Assembly (NCBI GenBank): GCA_964426185.1
Contig: CAYRPF010000012.1
Coordinates: 1 to 11,148 of the forward strand
Length of the DNA stretch: 11,148 bases
Source: an uncultured archaeon
GTDB lineage: Archaea; Asgardarchaeota; Lokiarchaeia; Sigyniarchaeales; Promethearchaeaceae
Direction: 5' to 3'
Positions 3,986 to 11,148 of the stretch are shown one piece after another. The position numbers and the translations under genes were made by a program. How positions within the stretch are numbered: the stretch's first letter is position 1; each line of letters opens with the position of its first letter. The notes below the pieces were generated by a model that ran no database searches, had not been told where the DNA came from, and saw only the letters and a program-made list of their open reading frames with translations.

Positions 3986-4600
3986 TTAGTTTTCTGTTGC
4001 TATCTTTAAGATCATTTCTGCCGCTTTATCATTATATTTTTCCATGTTTGAAATATTTTCTGCACAAACAATATGAAATTCTTTAATTGAAATCTTACGT
4101 TTCATGAAAAATTCTATAATTTCTTCTTTCATTTTCTCAATCATGCTTTCACGTTCAGATTCTGGTAATAAGTCGTATTTGTTGAAGCAGACGTAAATTT
4201 GACCGGGGAAAAAGCGAACATCTCTGAAAAATTGAAATTGATCTTGAACTGGGCGATCACAAGCGAAAACTGCAATAATTTGTTTTGCGATACGAGAAAT
4301 GGTTATTACACCCATTCTGACAACAGCACGTCCCCTATCCCCTCCAGGTGCGAATAATGTGTGATTTTTATGTGTATCCACTTCTCTAAATACAACTCGG
4401 TTTGGATGAATTGTTTTTGTCTCTTTTACTCCTGTTTCTGGATCTAAAACTGCCTCACCGGAAAAATCTGTTTTTACGACGACGCACTCTTTTCCCCCTT
4501 TAACTTCTGTAATTTTTTTCGTTTTCAAATATTTCACAAATAATCTTAATATCGTTGTTTTTCCAACGGAAACCGCACCAAGTAATCCTATATTTGCCAT
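3986..4600 (-). CDS. Small P-loop GTPase, divergent MglA/Ras-superfamily-like (204 aa)
   Basis: G1 GAVSVGKTT at the N-terminus, putative G2 Thr in KTIHP, G3 position LFAPGGD (no Asp, no Gln), G4 NKYD, G5-like VCA. GGAGGG SD lies inside the end of the upstream gene. Confidence 0.88.
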   Translation of the reverse strand: MANIGLLGAVSVGKTTILRLFVKYLKTKKITEVKGGKECVVVKTDFSGEAVLDPETGVKETKTIHPNRVVFREVDTHKNHTLFAPGGDRGRAVVRMGVITISRIAKQIIAVFACDRPVQDQFQFFRDVRFFPGQIYVCFNKYDLLPESERESMIEKMKEEIIEFFMKRKISIKEFHIVCAENISNMEKYNDKAAEMILKIATEN

Positions 4601-4602
4601 TT

Positions 4603-5436
4603 TTATCCCTCCCCTTCATCGATTTCTTCGATTTCAAGTAGTTGATTCAAAAATGTTTCATAATCACCCACTAAAAATTGTTCTAACATGGAATTATTGT
4701 GAACTTCGATTAATGCCATCATTAAATCTTTTAATGAAGTTGCACTTCGAATGAATTTTACGAAATTTTTTTCTGTGGGTTCCATAGTAAATTCTTTTGG
4801 AGATTGACCGAAACCAAAGTTATCTGTTCGTGGTAGATCAGAAAAATAACCAAAAGCACTATATCCACTATAAGAAAAATAAACATAATAGCGAGATTTC
4901 ATATTTTTTACATAATTGGACAGAAATACTGTGCTGTATAATTCCCCTAAGAATAATTCTTCATCTTGCTTCAAAGTATAATATGGGGCAATTGGTGATT
5001 TTAAGCCTGGTGGAAACATTTCTGCGGGTGGAAGGGATACGAATGGAAGTTTTTCTTCTATTATTGCCCATAAATCATCCCGTCCTTTTTCAGTTAATAT
5101 TTCCTTGATTTCATCGTAAGCAAATGCAAAATCTGCTTGAAAACTAATTAATGATGATAAATAAACAGATAAACAAGCAAAAGTTGCGTCTAAAATTGGT
5201 CTTTTTTTAGAACTTGAAGGTTTAATTGCGCCTCTCCATGATCGAATGGCGGAATATGCCCATCCACGAGTATCGAAGAAATTTCCACTTAAAAAAATAA
5301 AATTGATATCAGTTTCGTTAATGCCCAGTAATTCTTTTGCTTTATTGACTAAGGCAACTTCCACTTCATCACTATTATATGTTGAGTGTATTTTGGGGTA
5401 AATTAGAATCGCTTTCTTTGCTTTTTTTGCCATCAT
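4603..5436 (-). CDS. Hypothetical protein (~277 aa), probably translationally coupled to the GTPase
   Basis: Long ORF with globular composition; its stop is 2 nt before the GTPase ATG. The start is ambiguous (TTG 5439, ATG 5436, ATG 5433). No family recognised with confidence. Confidence 0.82.
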   Translation of the reverse strand: MMAKKAKKAILIYPKIHSTYNSDEVEVALVNKAKELLGINETDINFIFLSGNFFDTRGWAYSAIRSWRGAIKPSSSKKRPILDATFACLSVYLSSLISFQADFAFAYDEIKEILTEKGRDDLWAIIEEKLPFVSLPPAEMFPPGLKSPIAPYYTLKQDEELFLGELYSTVFLSNYVKNMKSRYYVYFSYSGYSAFGYFSDLPRTDNFGFGQSPKEFTMEPTEKNFVKFIRSATSLKDLMMALIEVHNNSMLEQFLVGDYETFLNQLLEIEEIDEGEG

Positions 5437-5450
5437 CAATTCTACTCTTC

Positions 5451-6159: not shown

Positions 6160-6480
6160 TTATGATTTCAATTTCAATTTTTTAGTTTTTGTAACCGGAA
6201 GAGTGGGGTTTATTTCTTCTAAGGTTTTTATTAAAGCCGGAACTTCATCTTGGAATAAAGCCTCTTGAAACTGTAAATACATTTCATAGTCGGCTATAAA
6301 CAAGCCTTTTCTTTTCTTTGGCTTTCCCGTTACCTTATCAACAGGATTGATTTCGACCATTAAGCGCGCTTCTCTTGTTTTTGTTCCAGGAATTTTAACT
6401 ACAAAGACACCTGGAATATCTGTTTCCATTTTTTCCCAATCTTGACCAGTTTTTAGAAAATTTTCCAAATCTTCAATCAT
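6160..6480 (-). CDS. Conserved archaeal hypothetical protein (106 aa), possibly nucleic-acid binding
   Basis: L..FL..G.DWE...T.IPGVF.VK.P, L.VEINPV...GKP.KRKGL and L...LEE.NP recall a small uncharacterised archaeal family; GTGA SD at 6487-6490. Confidence 0.85.
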   Translation of the reverse strand: MIEDLENFLKTGQDWEKMETDIPGVFVVKIPGTKTREARLMVEINPVDKVTGKPKKRKGLFIADYEMYLQFQEALFQDEVPALIKTLEEINPTLPVTKTKKLKLKS

Positions 6481-6652: not shown

Positions 6653-6847
6653 ATGAAAATGCTAACTGTCTTTATCCCAGAAAAATATATTGAGTCATTA
6701 GATTTATTGGTTGTGGAAGAATTATTTCCCAATCGAAGCGAAGCTATTCGATCAGCCATTAGGGATTTAATTCATAAAGAATTGTTGTTAAAAGAAGAAA
6801 TCGCTCGACGAACGGAGAAAAAAAAAGAGAATGAATCTACGCCATGA
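6653..6847 (+). CDS. Ribbon-helix-helix (CopG/Arc/MetJ) transcription regulator, CdrS-like (64 aa)
   Basis: Beta ribbon MKMLTVFIP, helix EKYIESLDLLV, then FPNRSEAIRSAIRDLI; GAGG SD at 6641-6644. Confidence 0.92.
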   Translation: MKMLTVFIPEKYIESLDLLVVEELFPNRSEAIRSAIRDLIHKELLLKEEIARRTEKKKENESTP

Positions 6848-9800
6848 TTTTATTCTTACGTGCTTTTCTTCGAATTTTCTTTCTTATTTCAATCCGTAGT
6901 TGTTTTCGCAATTCGGGAGATTCAATTTCATTTAATTTTTCTAATGCGAATTTTTCATTCTGATATTTCTTATAACTTAATTCAATTCTCTTAAGATTTT
7001 GTTCACACAATCGTCTTAAATCACTTAATCCTAAATTGGTAAAAATCTCTAAAGCTTTTTGATTTTTGATTTTAGCATCTTCAAATTTCGCTTGTTTTAC
7101 AAAATCCTTGGCAGAATTTAATAATTCAAAACCATCTTCTTTCGTCGGTAATTGAGCTCGATGTTCCAGTTTTGATTTTAATGCTAATATTTCGATATGA
7201 AGGTTTGTCAAATTTTCTAGTGATTGCTGCCATTTTAAACGCTCCATTTGTTTTTTAATCGTATTATATGAATTCAATGCTCCATCTATATTTTCTTTAT
7301 CTAGAAAATTAATACATGCTGTAATTTCTTCTAAAATTATATTTTCATCATCCAAGACAGTATTCTGTAATAATTCAGGTAGATGAATCAAAGTCTGAGG
7401 AATTTGTGAATAAATTTGTTGCAATCGTTTTTTAGTGGTATTTACCTCTAGAGTCCAGTTATTTTGAGTGAAATTATACATTGCATGGTGGAGATAATAT
7501 AGACTTAAATAAGGATTTCCTTCTCTAAGGGAGTTTTCCCCAATTTCAAGAAATTTGTAGGCTTGTTCTCCCCGTTCCTGTTCGAGACTAGCCAATCGCT
7601 TTTGTTCTAACGAGATTTCTTCAAAACTTTCTAAAGAAGATTTCCGTTTTAATTCTTGTTGTGCCATTAATTTTTCAAAATCTTTCTGTTTCTTCAATTC
7701 TTCTTCTTGTCTTTTACGAATTTCTGCCACTTTTTGGGCATATAGTTGCTTTTTTACTTTAGTTTCTTCTATTAATTGTTTAATTTGCTTCTTTTTCAAA
7801 GGCCAATTTATTTCATCGAACAAGATTAAAGCTTCCTTATATCGTGCAATGGCTAAATCATATTCATGTTGAAGCGCAAAATTGCTCCCCATCTCTAATA
7901 GGTCAAATATTCTATTTTGAATTTGTTCTTCTTTATTTTTTATTTCGTTTTCTTCTAGTTTGCGCTTCTGTTCTTCTAATAATCGACGTTCCGATTCTTT
8001 TTCTGATTTCCTTATTAATTCTTTAATTCTTTCAATTTCCTCTTTTCTTTCTTGCTCTGCAATTTCTTGTAATTTTTGTTGTTCTTGGTAAGCTTGCATA
8101 TCTTGCTGTGTTTTTTTAATCGTTTCTTGGGTAATTCGAATTCCAACTTCATAATTGATTTGTTGGTAAAGATCTAAGACTTGCTGATATATATTCAAAG
8201 CATCTTTGAAATTGTTTTCTTTAACAAATGCTCTGGCTTGATCTAATAATTGAAAACATTGGTTATGTATTTCCTGGGCCTTTCTGGCTTTTTCTTGTTC
8301 TTTTGCAAGTTTTTGCTGTCTTTTCAACTCTTCTTGGCTCTTAATCTGTTGACTTTCGGAAATTAGCTTTTGAATTTCTTCTAAATCTCGCTTTCGTTTT
8401 TCTTCTTCCAACATTTTCCTGTGTTTTTCTTGTTCTAATTGTTCTTTTTGTTTTAAACTCCATGAAATACGAGCTTTCTTTTCTAATTCTTCATATTCCT
8501 TAATTCTTTTCAATCGTTCTTCTTCTTGACGTTTAAGCTCTGCTAAGTATTCCATTTCTTCTTGTTTGAAAAATTCAATTTGATTGGCAATTTTCTCTGC
8601 TTCTTGTTTCCATCCAATTTGTTGGAAAAGTTTACTTGCTTCTAAATATTTAATGATTGCTTCTTTAAACTTGTGTTCTTGAGCTAAGTTATTTCCTTCA
8701 GTAATCATGGTTAAGGCTCTTTCAGAAATTTCCTTTTGGTGTTGCATTTCTTGATTTTGTATCGCTTTTTGATTTGCTTCTTGCTGCATTCTCTGATAAA
8801 GTTCTTCTTGGGATTTTTTTATTTGTTGTTGTAAAGCCTTGGCATTCATTTCTTGAATTTCCTTTTGTTGCTCAACTCGTCGCCGATATTCTTGATCTTT
8901 CTTTAAACGCTCTTGATATGTTTTCACACCTTCAAAAAGTTTGATTCCCTCATCCCGCCATCCAATGGCTTCTAATTTTTTCGCTGAATCTAAATAAATT
9001 TTAATTGCCTCTTCATATGGTGGAATAAATGAGTATCTCTCTATGTGAGACTCGTATTCTCTAACTTTATTTTCTATTTCATCAATTTTGTTAAATATTT
9101 CCTTGGCTTTTTGCTCTTTTTCCTTTTCTTCCGCTTCTCTTCTCCTTTTGATGGTTTCTTGTTCTTTTTGATGTTTAAGTTGAATTTCACGAGAAAGTCT
9201 CGCTCGCTCTTCCAACAATCTTTCTCCTTCTTTCGTTTTAGCTATTCGAAGTTTTTCTTTTTCTCGATAGATTTGATCTTTTCTCAATTTTTCTTGATAT
9301 GTTTTAATTCCATCAAATAAACGAATACTCTCAGAGGTCCACCCAATTTCCCTTATTCTTTCTGCTGATTTTTGATAAATTTTAATTACTTCTTCATATG
9401 GGCAGATATATGGTATTTTATCAACACGAGATTCGTAATCTTTTACTTTTTGTTCTGCTTCGGCGATTTCGGATAAAATATTTTTTGCCACTTCTTGTTT
9501 ATAGGCATTTTCTTCTTGTTCTTTCCTTAATCGTTCTTGTTCTTGTTTACGTCGTGCTTCTTGGATCTGTTTTGCCTTTAATGCCCTTTGTTCTAATAGT
9601 TTTTGTTCTTCTAAGGATTTGGCAACCCGCAGTTGTTCATTCCGCCTAAATTCTTGATCTTGCTTATACTTTTGTTGGTAAACATGCATACCTTCTAATA
9701 ATTTAAGACCTTCTGAATTCCATCCAATATCAATAAGTTGTTGTGCCCCTTGTTTATAAATTTCAATACATTTTTCATATGGAGGATCAAAGAGGATTTT

Positions 9801-11147
9801 CTCCGGCTGAGATTCATATTCTTCTACTTCTTTTTCGATCTTCTCAATTTTTGCGTAAATTTGATCTGCTATGGCTAACTTGAAATTTTGCTCTTCTCTT
9901 TCTCGCTTCTTTCGTTCTTCTAATTCTTTTTCTCTCTGACGTTTAAGTTGTTCTGCTAATTTAGCTCTCTGTTCCAGTAGTTGTGCTTCTTCTTTTGATT
10001 TTGCTTTGCGACGTGCTTCTTCTTCTCTAAATTGTTGATCTTTTTCCAATTTTTGAGAATAAACTTGAGCCCCTTCGAACAATTGAATCGATTCTTTTGT
10101 CCAATTGATTTCTTTAAGTGTTTTTGCTCCTTTAAAATAAATCTCGATAGCGCGTTGGTAGGGAGGTTCGAATGGTATTTTATCAAGTAATGATTCGTAT
10201 TCCTTAATTTCTTGTTCAATTTTTTCTATTTGGCTAAAAACTTGATTTGCAATCGACTCTTGATATGCTTTCAATTCTTGTTCTTTTTTCTTCTCTCTTT
10301 CAAGAGTTTTTAATCTTTCCAATTCTAATTGTTTGGCTTTTTGTGCTCTTAATTCAAACATGCGCTCTTCTTCTTTAGTTTTTGCTTGACGAAGGTTTTC
10401 TTTTTCTCGGTATTTTCTATCTTGCTCCATTTTTTTTTTATATGTAGAAATTGCATCTGAAAGTCTAATTGCCTGTTCTGTCCATTCTATGTCTCGAAAA
10501 GTTTCTGAAGCTTGCTTATATACTTCAATTGCTTTTGTATAAGGTGATTCTAAAATAATTTTATCAGGTGTCTGTTCATAATTTCTAATTTTAGCTTCTA
10601 TCTCATCAATTTGTGCAAAAAGTTGTGCTGCAATTGCTTGCTGATAAGCATTTTTTTCTCGTTGTCTTTGTTTTTCTTTTGCTTTTTGTCTCTCTTTTTT
10701 CTGTTGATTTTCTTTGGCTTCTAAGGCTTTCTGCTCAAGTTCTGCAAGTTCTTCTTTAGTCAATTCTTCTTGGCGCGCTAGCTTCTCTCGGTATTTTTTA
10801 TCTTCAGTTAATTTTTCCTGATAACGGATAACTCCTTCAGCTATTCGTTTACTTTGGTCGGTCCAACCTAATCGGGATAATTTTGGGGCAGATTCGGAAT
10901 AAACTTTAATGGCTTCTTCATAAGGGCAAGGATAATCGAAACGGTTAGCTTTTGACTCATATTCATTTACTTTCTTTTCAATAGATTCGATTTGGTTTAA
11001 AATTTGTTCTGCTTGTTTGTTAAGTGCTTGTTGTTTTCTTCGTTCTTCTTCTTGTTTGCGTAATATTTCCGCTTTTTGGCGTTCAGATTCCTTTTTGGCT
11101 TCTAAGGCTTTCTGCTCAAGTTCTGCAAGTTCTTCTTTAGTCAATTC
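6837..11147 (-). CDS. Giant helical-repeat protein, 5'-partial (>1435 aa): TPR/MIT-like modules alternating with E/K/R/Q-rich long helices
   Basis: The frame is open to the window edge; the track's M at 11144 is an internal TTG (Leu of EELTKEELAEL). About 12 modules with pattern A..I...I...E.......(P)Y..AI..Y..A...L..I.W..E...L, and a basic C-tail RKKIRRKARKNK. Confidence 0.92.
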   Translation of the reverse strand, partial: ELTKEELAELEQKALEAKKESERQKAEILRKQEEERRKQQALNKQAEQILNQIESIEKKVNEYESKANRFDYPCPYEEAIKVYSESAPKLSRLGWTDQSKRIAEGVIRYQEKLTEDKKYREKLARQEELTKEELAELEQKALEAKENQQKKERQKAKEKQRQREKNAYQQAIAAQLFAQIDEIEAKIRNYEQTPDKIILESPYTKAIEVYKQASETFRDIEWTEQAIRLSDAISTYKKKMEQDRKYREKENLRQAKTKEEERMFELRAQKAKQLELERLKTLEREKKKEQELKAYQESIANQVFSQIEKIEQEIKEYESLLDKIPFEPPYQRAIEIYFKGAKTLKEINWTKESIQLFEGAQVYSQKLEKDQQFREEEARRKAKSKEEAQLLEQRAKLAEQLKRQREKELEERKKREREEQNFKLAIADQIYAKIEKIEKEVEEYESQPEKILFDPPYEKCIEIYKQGAQQLIDIGWNSEGLKLLEGMHVYQQKYKQDQEFRRNEQLRVAKSLEEQKLLEQRALKAKQIQEARRKQEQERLRKEQEENAYKQEVAKNILSEIAEAEQKVKDYESRVDKIPYICPYEEVIKIYQKSAERIREIGWTSESIRLFDGIKTYQEKLRKDQIYREKEKLRIAKTKEGERLLEERARLSREIQLKHQKEQETIKRRREAEEKEKEQKAKEIFNKIDEIENKVREYESHIERYSFIPPYEEAIKIYLDSAKKLEAIGWRDEGIKLFEGVKTYQERLKKDQEYRRRVEQQKEIQEMNAKALQQQIKKSQEELYQRMQQEANQKAIQNQEMQHQKEISERALTMITEGNNLAQEHKFKEAIIKYLEASKLFQQIGWKQEAEKIANQIEFFKQEEMEYLAELKRQEEERLKRIKEYEELEKKARISWSLKQKEQLEQEKHRKMLEEEKRKRDLEEIQKLISESQQIKSQEELKRQQKLAKEQEKARKAQEIHNQCFQLLDQARAFVKENNFKDALNIYQQVLDLYQQINYEVGIRITQETIKKTQQDMQAYQEQQKLQEIAEQERKEEIERIKELIRKSEKESERRLLEEQKRKLEENEIKNKEEQIQNRIFDLLEMGSNFALQHEYDLAIARYKEALILFDEINWPLKKKQIKQLIEETKVKKQLYAQKVAEIRKRQEEELKKQKDFEKLMAQQELKRKSSLESFEEISLEQKRLASLEQERGEQAYKFLEIGENSLREGNPYLSLYYLHHAMYNFTQNNWTLEVNTTKKRLQQIYSQIPQTLIHLPELLQNTVLDDENIILEEITACINFLDKENIDGALNSYNTIKKQMERLKWQQSLENLTNLHIEILALKSKLEHRAQLPTKEDGFELLNSAKDFVKQAKFEDAKIKNQKALEIFTNLGLSDLRRLCEQNLKRIELSYKKYQNEKFALEKLNEIESPELRKQLRIEIRKKIRRKARKNKIMA

Positions 11148-11148
11148 T
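8730..11148 (-). repeat. Degenerate intragenic tandem repeat, period 381 bp (127 aa), six full units plus a partial seventh
   Basis: Conserved Trp codons at 10863, 10482, 10101, 9720, 9339 and 8958 are each exactly 381 bp apart. Confidence 0.93.
10713..11148. repeat. Exact 55-bp direct repeat (10713-10767 = 11094-11148)
   Basis: TTTGGCTTCTAAGGCTTTCTGCTCAAGTTCTGCAAGTTCTTCTTTAGTCAATTCT occurs twice at an offset of 381 bp; the second copy runs to the last base of the window. Confidence 0.97.

Follow-up and report, generated by a model that had tools for sequence, protein, structure and literature searches.

What is encoded by the very long open reading frame that occupies much of the window analysed here, a stretch of 11,148 nucleotides from an archaeon of the class Lokiarchaeia, and what could such a protein be for? 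The Asgard origin that a preliminary description of the sequence had proposed is correct, and the frame (6837..11147, minus strand) translates into the C-terminal 1436 codons and the stop of a giant gene. Its end does not lie at 11147, where the preliminary description had placed it, since the frame continues past an assembly gap of 100 N, situated at contig positions 11149-11248 and hence beginning where the window ends, as far as an ATG at 12047 on the contig. The gap thus splits a gene that spans 6837-12047 on the minus strand of contig C12 and that has at least three additional long-type units beyond the gap. The protein is real and exceeds 1,700 residues, most of which the window encodes, and a same-genus ortholog from a closed genome has 2417 residues. 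We find it probable, if by no means assured, that this is a cytoplasmic, non-enzymatic protein built as beads on a rod, in which small helical bundles serve as docking knobs, semi-rigid helices as spacers and the C-terminal end as an attachment module.

The repeat array

The array has an exact period of 127 residues, with tryptophans at aa 95, 222, 349, 476, 603 and 730 of the translation and their codons recurring every 381 bp from 10865-10863 down to 8960-8958. Six blocks of 127 aa align without a single gap at 28-48% identity, and there is accordingly no net indel despite the divergence. The number of six modules given previously is right for the window, but it is a lower bound for the protein because the scaffold gap lies inside the frame. 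All units are on the minus strand. Unit 1 (aa 1-127, 10767..11147) belongs to a recently duplicated N-proximal sub-array, and its final 55 nt (11094-11148) recur unchanged at 10713-10767. Unit 2 (aa 128-254, 10386..10766), delimited by the gap-free block alignment, is the positional ortholog of the unit starting at residue 1113 of the relative P0002, to which it is 48% identical. Units 3 (aa 255-381, 10005..10385), 4 (aa 382-508, 9624..10004) and 5 (aa 509-635, 9243..9623) were defined by block alignment and AlphaFold2 together, unit 4 sharing 66% identity with its P0002 ortholog, and unit 6 (aa 636-762, 8862..9242), again from the block alignment, is the final strict 127-aa unit, as identity falls to 10-13% in the block that follows. 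Orthologous units of the two proteins are 48-66% identical, whereas paralogous units are 30-48% identical, and all are exactly 127 aa long. In the nucleotide sequence, a 60-nt family is repeated every 381 bp, and the 381-bp array is absent from the output of Tandem Repeats Finder.

The strict units are followed by degenerate units of a short, TPR/MIT-like type carried on very long helices (aa 763-1255, 7383..8861, minus strand), as judged from the structural model and from tryptophan spacings of 116, 50, 219 and 116; a single low-confidence segment is found in this region at approximately aa 1037-1062.

Predicted structure of the central array

AlphaFold2, run on three units with an alignment of 115 rows, gave a model with a pLDDT of 88.3 in which each unit takes the form of a short bundle of three helices, TPR/MIT in type and equivalent to 1.5 TPR. 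In unit 3 the modelled order is linker helix, loop 65-75, helix 76-92, a G-W turn and a long helix. Helix 2 of the unit comprises 17 residues and the bundle helices about 17-25, which leaves some 50 residues of connecting helix free. Residues 96-191 and 223-318 are modelled as unbroken helices of 96 residues with pLDDT values of 83-96, and since these are continuous, helix 3 of each bundle would traverse the linker and serve as helix 1 of the bundle after it, just as the preliminary description had anticipated. The linkers are in other words predicted to be helical and not disordered. The pTM values of 0.41 and 0.36 in the two AlphaFold2 models mean, however, that the placement of the bundles, and with it the straightness of the rod, is predicted without confidence.

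The model furthermore bears on the notion that this is an ordinary TPR protein folding into a compact superhelix, with the rod being a modelling artefact. Weak matches to TPR_2, TPR_12 and TPR_16 would agree with this, as would the TPR proteins (such as LGN, OGT and SNAP) that make up the best Foldseek rows, at E ~2e-3 for the model with the C-terminal cap, neither model having a match in the PDB at E <= 0.001. Every Pfam TPR score of the giant protein, those for PF13424, PF07719 and PF00515 included, is nevertheless under its cut-off (24.7 bits against 27 for TPR_2, 16.5-18.9 against 30.1 for TPR_12), and TPR stacking requires contiguous 34-aa repeats, whereas some 53 Pro-free residues separate the hairpins here and the helices modelled between the bundles are 96 residues long. 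The TPR_12/LGN-type and SNAP-type TPR proteins do share the hairpin geometry, but the central hairpins of the giant protein are not stacked on one another, and the model of the central array shows no compact solenoid. A superhelix therefore seems highly improbable, even though a contiguous TPR-like stack is predicted for the C-terminal 150 residues.

Composition of the linker

AlphaFold2 tends towards long helices for charged sequences, and the composition of the linker, with its scarcity of proline and glycine and its charge pairs, gives independent support for helicity. Among 60 in-register 127-aa units from the giant protein and six close relatives, each with a linker of 53 residues, the total of 3180 residues includes no Pro and just 2 Gly, and 68% are E, K, R, Q or D. 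Oppositely charged pairs at i+3/i+4 occur at 0.375 per residue against 0.286 in shuffled sequences, and like-charge pairs at 0.177 against 0.282. The earlier characterization as a charged, Pro-free tract is in good agreement with these figures, but the linker is not purely charged, since E+K+R reach 52% and strong hydrophobics 18%, and the tract is rich in Gln. Conserved hydrophobic unit columns (9, 10, 14, 16, 17 and 20) lie within the first 20 linker residues, which on the pattern of conservation suggests a buried interface.

The likeness to ER/K single alpha-helix spacers, such as the lever extensions of myosin VI and myosin X and the helix of caldesmon, is consequently partial. Common to both are a Pro-free charged helix with enriched i/i+4 salt bridges and the prediction that it stands alone between folded domains, and both the charge-pair enrichment and the near lack of helix breakers speak for a single alpha-helix. 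The present linker falls short of a classical E/K single alpha-helix in being Gln-rich and in carrying conserved hydrophobics in its first half, and typical ER/K helices have an E+K+R content above 52%.

Some of these departures are what would be expected if the long helices paired between chains, in parallel or antiparallel, to form a self-associating coiled-coil filament or bundle as in intermediate-filament-like and crescentin-like proteins, with the bundles acting as registration points and not as ligand sites. The conserved hydrophobic columns, the modest charge content and the sequence conservation of the linker's N-terminal half across both families all fit such an arrangement. However, a period of 3.5 residues does not stand out as a peak in the hydrophobicity spectrum, where its power is 2.7 against 6.2 at 3.2 and 5.1 at 3.67, and columns 21-39, the linker's second half, are almost devoid of hydrophobic positions, while the enriched charge pairs are intrahelical. 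We therefore regard a coiled-coil filament as unlikely, if still deserving of attention; a homodimer prediction with two copies of the three-unit segment scored 0.00, and as it was made without control runs it argues neither for nor against self-association.

Relationship to MIT domains and spectrin repeats

In the model, the beads are asymmetric three-helix bundles of about 70-80 residues, as in MIT domains (PF04212), and they superpose on these over the full domain in VIA-align, with 72/74 residues of 2w2u_B aligned at an rmsd of 1.9 A and a Z of 8.4, 71/73 of 4a5x_B at a Z of 8.0, and 3eab_A at a Z of 7.7 (rmsd range 1.9-2.5 A), a Z of about 8 being within the noise range that unrelated helical bundles can attain. 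The three-helix fold thus agrees with the TPR/MIT type named in the preliminary description, but sequence does not establish the central units as MIT domains. The best PF04212 match of the giant protein is unit 7 (8541-8723), which at 18.8 bits is below the gathering score of 30 bits, and 6/115 three-unit segments match at E < 0.01; the N-terminal units of distant relatives do pass the cut-off, with 40.9 bits for P0016 and 94.6 bits for P0069. In hhalign, 120 central bundles compared with 29 Asgard Vps4 MIT domains gave a probability of 12% and an E of 0.0024 over 24 columns, all of them in helix 2, and a comparison of the bundle profile with a single Vps4 MIT sequence was discarded at a probability of 0.4%. 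Searching the profile of 120 bundles against PDB sequences returned designed proteins and chance matches and no MIT protein, and a bundle query of the ESM Atlas had no usable match.

On this evidence it appears quite improbable that we are dealing with a true ESCRT-system protein made of many MIT domains, in which each bundle would bind a MIM-type C-terminal helix and the rod would gather or space ESCRT-III polymers or Vps4. Such a function would agree with the superpositions, which cover the whole bundle at low rmsd, with the matches above cut-off in distant members and the sub-threshold match of unit 7, and with the presence, in the host genome, of a Vps4 gene whose product has a canonical MIT domain. 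It is in poor agreement with the profile comparisons and with the rarity of PF04212 among the segments, and furthermore with the genomic context, as no ESCRT genes are found in the neighbourhood of the giant gene at the loci examined in the host and its relatives; in addition, a comprehensive ESCRT survey mentions the term 'MIT domain' in three places only, and the passages of it that were consulted do not describe such a protein. The MIT domains of Vps4/CdvC, spastin and MITD1 share with the present bundles the three helices, the 1.5 TPR and the helix 2 pattern, but known MIT proteins, including the tandem cases calpain-7, Atg1 and Vta1, have one or two MITs beside an enzyme or adaptor module, while members of the giant-protein family carry 13-21 copies on long helices and their central units lack a match to the MIT profile.

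The connection between beads resembles that of spectrin-repeat rods (spectrin, alpha-actinin and dystrophin; PF00435), which likewise consist of tandem three-helix bundles with a continuous helix from unit to unit and likewise combine a long rod and a fixed residue period with a copy number that varies among orthologs. The modelled helices are consistent with the spectrin-like linkage suggested earlier, but PF00435 is not matched in Pfam by the giant protein, its three-unit segments or its relatives. Moreover, the 106-aa unit of spectrin is wholly taken up by its three helices, each about 30 residues long, giving about 5 nm per unit, whereas the 127-aa unit here has the free stretch of connecting helix and an estimated 11 nm per unit, and its helix 2 is of the TPR/MIT type.

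The C-terminal end

The array ends in a compact TPR-like cap (aa 1256-1407, 6927..7382, minus strand) predicted to consist of seven short helices joined by turns of 2-3 residues, with pLDDT mostly >90; the cap corresponds to model residues 494-645 and resembles a short TPR stack. It is followed by a terminal polybasic helix (aa 1411-1435, 6843..6917, minus strand), delimited from the model and the tail columns of the alignment, in which one Arg column is invariant family-wide and two further tail columns are nearly so, and K or R account for 12 of the final 26 residues of the giant protein. A MIM1-like motif (acidic-x-x-L-x-x-R-L-x-x-L-K/R) was considered for the start of the linker and the tail, where the family consensus is partly similar by eye, but this idea was dropped as the giant protein's own tail is unlike the pattern.

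Possible function

For the beads-on-rod protein that we favour, the third helix of each bundle would run unbroken for about 96 residues through the Pro-free linker with its many salt-bridge pairs and enter the following bundle as its helix 1. With 1.5 A for each residue, minus the overlap inside the bundle, this would give about 11 nm per unit, and a monomeric rod would measure at least about 0.14 micrometre in the present protein and about 0.2 micrometre in the ortholog known in full, as estimated from helix lengths and not from coordinates. The bundles may then present, at regular intervals, knobs on which helical or peptide ligands could dock, with the linker as a semi-rigid spacer, and the TPR-like cap and polybasic helix could together form an end-specific attachment module. 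What the analysis demonstrates is the anatomy of the repeats, the fold as predicted, the narrow distribution and the pairing of genes, whereas rigidity, a monomeric state, the binding of ligands and a part in the cell as scaffold, tether or spacer are inferred. Profile searches with the giant protein and its segments revealed no enzyme domain, and a transmembrane segment is absent, as had been noted. The most likely partner would be the product of the small winged-helix-like gene immediately upstream, whose taxonomic distribution nearly coincides with that of the giant gene. That rod and partner together form a hitherto unknown length-defining scaffold of the Lokiarchaeia, a prokaryotic analogue in function of spectrin or nebulin, with MIT-like knobs docking the helical tails of ESCRT-III-type or cytoskeletal proteins and the polybasic end anchoring to membrane or nucleic acid, and that it acts in spacing within the cell body or protrusions, is an extension that we consider rather doubtful.

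Asgard archaea have an actin cytoskeleton and long protrusions, but the structural proteins known from them are few. A conserved, order-restricted protein predicted to form a rod of 0.1-0.2 micrometre with periodic docking knobs would be a new structural element of these cells, and it would join three eukaryote-like designs, namely spectrin-style linkage, peptide-binding bundles of the predicted MIT/TPR type and charged single-helix spacers. The rod idea is open to direct test with recombinant fragments and in cultured relatives.

Distribution, period and gene neighbourhood

The repeat unit was found in 70/75 sampled genomes of one Asgard order (Loki-type), and the 226 genomes outside that order gave four weak single matches. 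Among 1.84 billion representative proteins it was seen in just 190, and the 72 homologs are from Asgard MAGs in every case where the source is named. Pfam searches of full-length close relatives gave chance matches only (for instance Mo-nitro_C, NUMOD1 and PCIF1_WW), and DUF7458 matches 10/115 three-unit segments. A literature search found no paper on the giant protein; giant genes of Asgard mobile elements, encoding proteins of >3000 aa, have been reported (PMC8813620), but these differ in size and domains and are unrelated.

The fixed period put forward in the preliminary description is exact in the host clade but not across the family, since the strict 127 is confined to this one clade and other members have periods of 116-134, depending on the position within the protein, with one member at 204-205. 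A strict reading as a molecular ruler is weakened by this variability. The length of the connecting helix does vary but is bounded, with >95% of continuous-helix spans family-wide at 73-95 residues. Quantization by helical turns was considered and rejected, since the common spans of 73, 80/81, 84, 87/88, 91 and 94/95 residues are matched in frequency by those of 85 and 86. Within the host clade, the retention of exactly 127 residues per unit despite deep divergence makes the array a clean natural example in which to study how length is constrained in repeat proteins.

The small winged-helix-like gene is present in 67/75 genomes of the host order and in 1/226 elsewhere, and in genomes for which both positions are listed the two genes are adjacent on one contig; this pairing could be inherited gene order inside one order. 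In both families the giant gene has downstream of it a conserved gene for a 106-aa protein of no known family (6160..6480, minus strand), which has a mean column identity of 72% and matches only unnamed archaeal clusters in the ESM Atlas. Between the two, a 64-aa ribbon-helix-helix gene (6653..6847, plus strand) is convergent with the giant gene and overlaps its 3' end by 11 nt, a position that is kept in relatives.

The repeat array and the extent of the gene

On the minus strand of the window, positions 6837-11147 hold a reading frame open over 1436 codons, the product of which (P0001, hereafter the giant protein) carries tryptophans at residues 95, 222, 349, 476, 603 and 730, a spacing of exactly 127, and six blocks of 127 residues can be aligned in register and free of gaps with pairwise identities of 28-48%, the identity falling to 10-13% for a seventh block. 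The preliminary description was thus right about the position and regularity of the repeats, with a Trp every 127 residues and gap-free blocks, but the interval that it gave, 6837-11147, falls short of the full gene, since the frame goes on to contig position 12047. At the DNA level the array is seen as a 60-nt family recurring every 381 bp, and Tandem Repeats Finder reports no 381-bp array in the window because the copies are too diverged.

The contig is 54 kb long; its first 11148 bases form the window, and a scaffold gap of 100 N (contig 11149-11248), located inside the giant gene, starts exactly where the window ends. Beyond the gap the frame reaches an ATG at contig 12047, which amounts to 1736 codons in all, 34 of them X. 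The final 55 nt of the window (11094-11148) recur without a difference at 10713-10767, and the two sides of the gap share a 159-nt stretch at 85% identity; the repeat array has therefore collapsed in assembly. Measured over the gap, moreover, the repeats are spaced by 354 rather than 381, and together with the near-identical flanks this indicates that the assembly broke within near-identical units and that 27 + 381n bases are missing.

Unit anatomy and predicted structure

A consensus of 60 in-register units, taken from the window protein and six close relatives, begins and ends in the linker (columns 114-127 plus 1-39), which is followed by helix 1 (columns about 40-64, with K-E-Y-E at its end), a Pro-rich loop ending in P-Y, helix 2 (columns 76-92, with the pattern A-I-x-I-Y ... 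L-x-x-I-G), a G-W turn and helix 3 from column 96 onward. The 3180 linker residues of these units include no Pro and only 2 Gly, E, K and R make up 52% of them (68% with Q and D included) and strong hydrophobics 18%. Opposite-charge pairs at i+3/i+4 are enriched in the linker (0.375 per residue vs 0.286 in shuffled controls), and like-charge pairs are depleted (0.177 vs 0.282).

An AlphaFold2 model of units 3-5, among the six strict 127-residue units at aa 1-762, was based on a 115-row alignment of three-unit segments of homologs and has a mean pLDDT of 88.3 and a pTM of 0.41. Its helices span residues 2-64, 76-92, 96-191, 203-219, 223-318, 330-346 and 350-380, and helix 3 of each bundle therefore extends without a break, 96 residues in all, to become helix 1 of the following bundle, as had been proposed from the sequence. 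From the predicted helix lengths, and without coordinates, the rise per unit is estimated at about 11 nm. The C-terminal 674 residues, modelled with a pLDDT of 82.1, form more bundles joined by connecting helices of 130 and 93 residues, then a compact stack of short helices (model residues 494-645, pLDDT above 90) and finally a helix bearing a polybasic tail, in which the family alignment has one invariant Arg column and two nearly invariant columns. Model residues 275-300 are of low confidence; they correspond to aa about 1037-1062 of P0001 (window about 7960-8040), the sole non-helical stretch of this kind in the C-terminal model (pLDDT 44-47), which could be a hinge in the predicted rod. 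The earlier statement that the protein lacks a transmembrane segment is borne out as well, the highest 19-residue Kyte-Doolittle mean being 0.82.

The reading towards which we lean, on balance, is that the protein is a rod, either of single chains or laterally associating, in which the bundles would serve as docking sites at regular intervals, the linkers would act as semi-rigid spacers between them, and the C-terminal cap with its polybasic helix would form an attachment end. The main rival, a filament held together by coiled-coil pairing, seems rather unlikely; it draws on hydrophobic positions that are conserved within the first 20 columns of the linker, and the hydrophobic profile of the linker has no heptad peak.

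Relation to known folds

At E <= 0.001 Foldseek returned no match for either the model of units 3-5 or that of the C-terminal part, and its best rows above this threshold are the TPR proteins LGN, OGT, SNAP and MamA. That the protein is an ordinary compact TPR solenoid is nevertheless very improbable, far more so than a coiled-coil filament, and in the model the bundles are joined by the continuous helices described. A VIA-align search of the bundle against 48,161 chains returns three-helix bundles, and here MIT domains span the whole bundle, namely those of Sulfolobus Vps4 (2w2u_B, Z 8.4, rmsd 1.9 Å, 72/74 residues), MITD1 (Z 8.0) and spastin (Z 7.7), Z values that unrelated helical bundles also reach. 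In shape the predicted bundle resembles these MIT domains, but the central units match them weakly in sequence and in helix 2 only, since hhalign of the bundle profile against 29 Asgard Vps4 MIT domains gave a probability of 12%, restricted to this helix. Likewise, all TPR and MIT matches of the window protein in Pfam are sub-threshold, and a profile of 120 bundles found no relative among solved structures. A true poly-MIT protein linked to ESCRT is doubtful, and less likely than the coiled-coil filament, even though N-terminal units of two distant members of the family exceed the Pfam MIT cut-off (P0016 at 40.9 bits and P0069 at 94.6 bits). We can conclude that in structure the bundles are of the TPR/MIT class; that the central units are members of the MIT family is not established.

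Our literature search found no paper on the architecture of the giant protein. Its building blocks are already known, and it is therefore classed with the helical repeat rods; what the window contributes is a partial copy of the gene, sequence-profile tests of MIT membership that failed, the positional orthology of units and the finding that the upstream gene is co-distributed with the giant gene.

Distribution and evolution of the period

A word-index search identified 72 homologs of 850-2507 residues, nearly all annotated as hypothetical, and those with a named source all stem from Lokiarchaeota, Promethearchaeota, Hodarchaeota or Thorarchaeota MAGs. When 1.84 billion representative proteins were searched exhaustively with HMMER, only 190 matched at E <= 0.001. 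A survey with the bundle profile covered 301 genomes of the phylum; it gave matches in 4 of 6 genomes of one family (f1) and in 66 of 69 of a second family (f2), the two forming one order, and outside this order there are four weak single matches among 226 genomes. The giant gene is single-copy in the source genome, which also encodes two weak paralogs, a small protein (about 200 aa) that has two TPR/MIT-like units of the short type (contig C44, 13246-13911, plus strand) and a 1147-aa frame on contig C126 with sub-threshold MIT and bundle matches.

The same-genus ortholog P0002 (K9W44_16785, on a 4.36-Mb contig of GCA_021498095.1) has 2417 residues and 13 strict 127-residue spacings. We take this assembly to be the genome of Ca. 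Harpocratesius repetitus FW102. The latter genome is described in PMC8813620. An exact period of 127 holds for the window protein and its closest relatives, for each of which 3 to 13 such spacings are listed, but not for the family at large, where the period ranges from 116 to 134 depending on the position within one protein and where many arrays close with the spacings 116, 116. In P0019, a homolog of 2507 aa, it is even 204-205 with the bundle unchanged, the continuous helix being 170 residues long, eight consecutive times, compared with 73-95 in the family. Of the two parts into which the period can be divided, that of the bundle comes in size classes of 33, 35, 39 and 43 residues, and that of the continuous helix measures 73 to 95 residues in more than 95% of cases. 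Units 2-6 each have one P0002 unit as best match, at 48-66% identity as against 30-48% for paralogous units, and this one-to-one correspondence implies that they are older than the species split and have retained their 127-residue length through deep divergence. Unit 1, nearest the window end, lies in a homogeneous, recently expanded sub-array, and it is within this sub-array that the assembly failed.

Genomic neighbourhood

Gene order is the same around the giant gene and the P0002 gene, and three conserved genes flank the giant gene in both families. Beyond the window, 54 nt upstream, lies a small co-oriented gene of 99 aa (contig 12102-12401, minus strand), whose product measures 96-132 aa elsewhere and whose counterpart directly adjoins the giant gene in 3 of the 4 relatives' loci examined. 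The protein shows weak similarity to ribosomal protein eS19 in the wing region of the latter (E 5e-4), which is consistent with a winged-helix-like fold. Its profile matches 5/6 f1 and 62/69 f2 genomes (67 of the 75 in the order) and a single one, of the same class, among 226 genomes outside the order, with none in the other 225. It is always single-copy where found, and in genomes with both positions listed it shares one contig with the first bundle matches, 1-2 kb apart. Judging from this pairing, the putative winged-helix protein is the most promising candidate for a partner of the giant protein; alternatively the pairing may reflect inherited synteny, since its carriers all lie within one order.

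A ribbon-helix-helix gene of 64 aa (window 6653-6847, plus strand) faces the giant gene in convergent orientation and shares 11 nt with its 3' end, and relatives from both families have such a gene at the corresponding site. The next gene (window 6160-6480, minus strand) encodes a protein of 106 aa, 106-107 across loci, which matches no Pfam family and has a mean column identity of 72% between families. The neighbours that a language model assigns to it are archaeal clusters without a name, belonging to other phyla, and it may therefore occur widely and have no connection with the rod. The closed genome of the same genus differs from the window in having an inserted IS66-family transposase (18302-19072 of that locus) that separates the 106-aa gene from the genes after it; the equivalent site in the window has none. 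On the minus strand at window 3986-5439 a 278-aa protein without family precedes, by 2 nt, a 204-aa small GTPase with only a weak GTP_EFTU match, and the closed genome has syntenic counterparts of this pair, of 276 and 204 aa.
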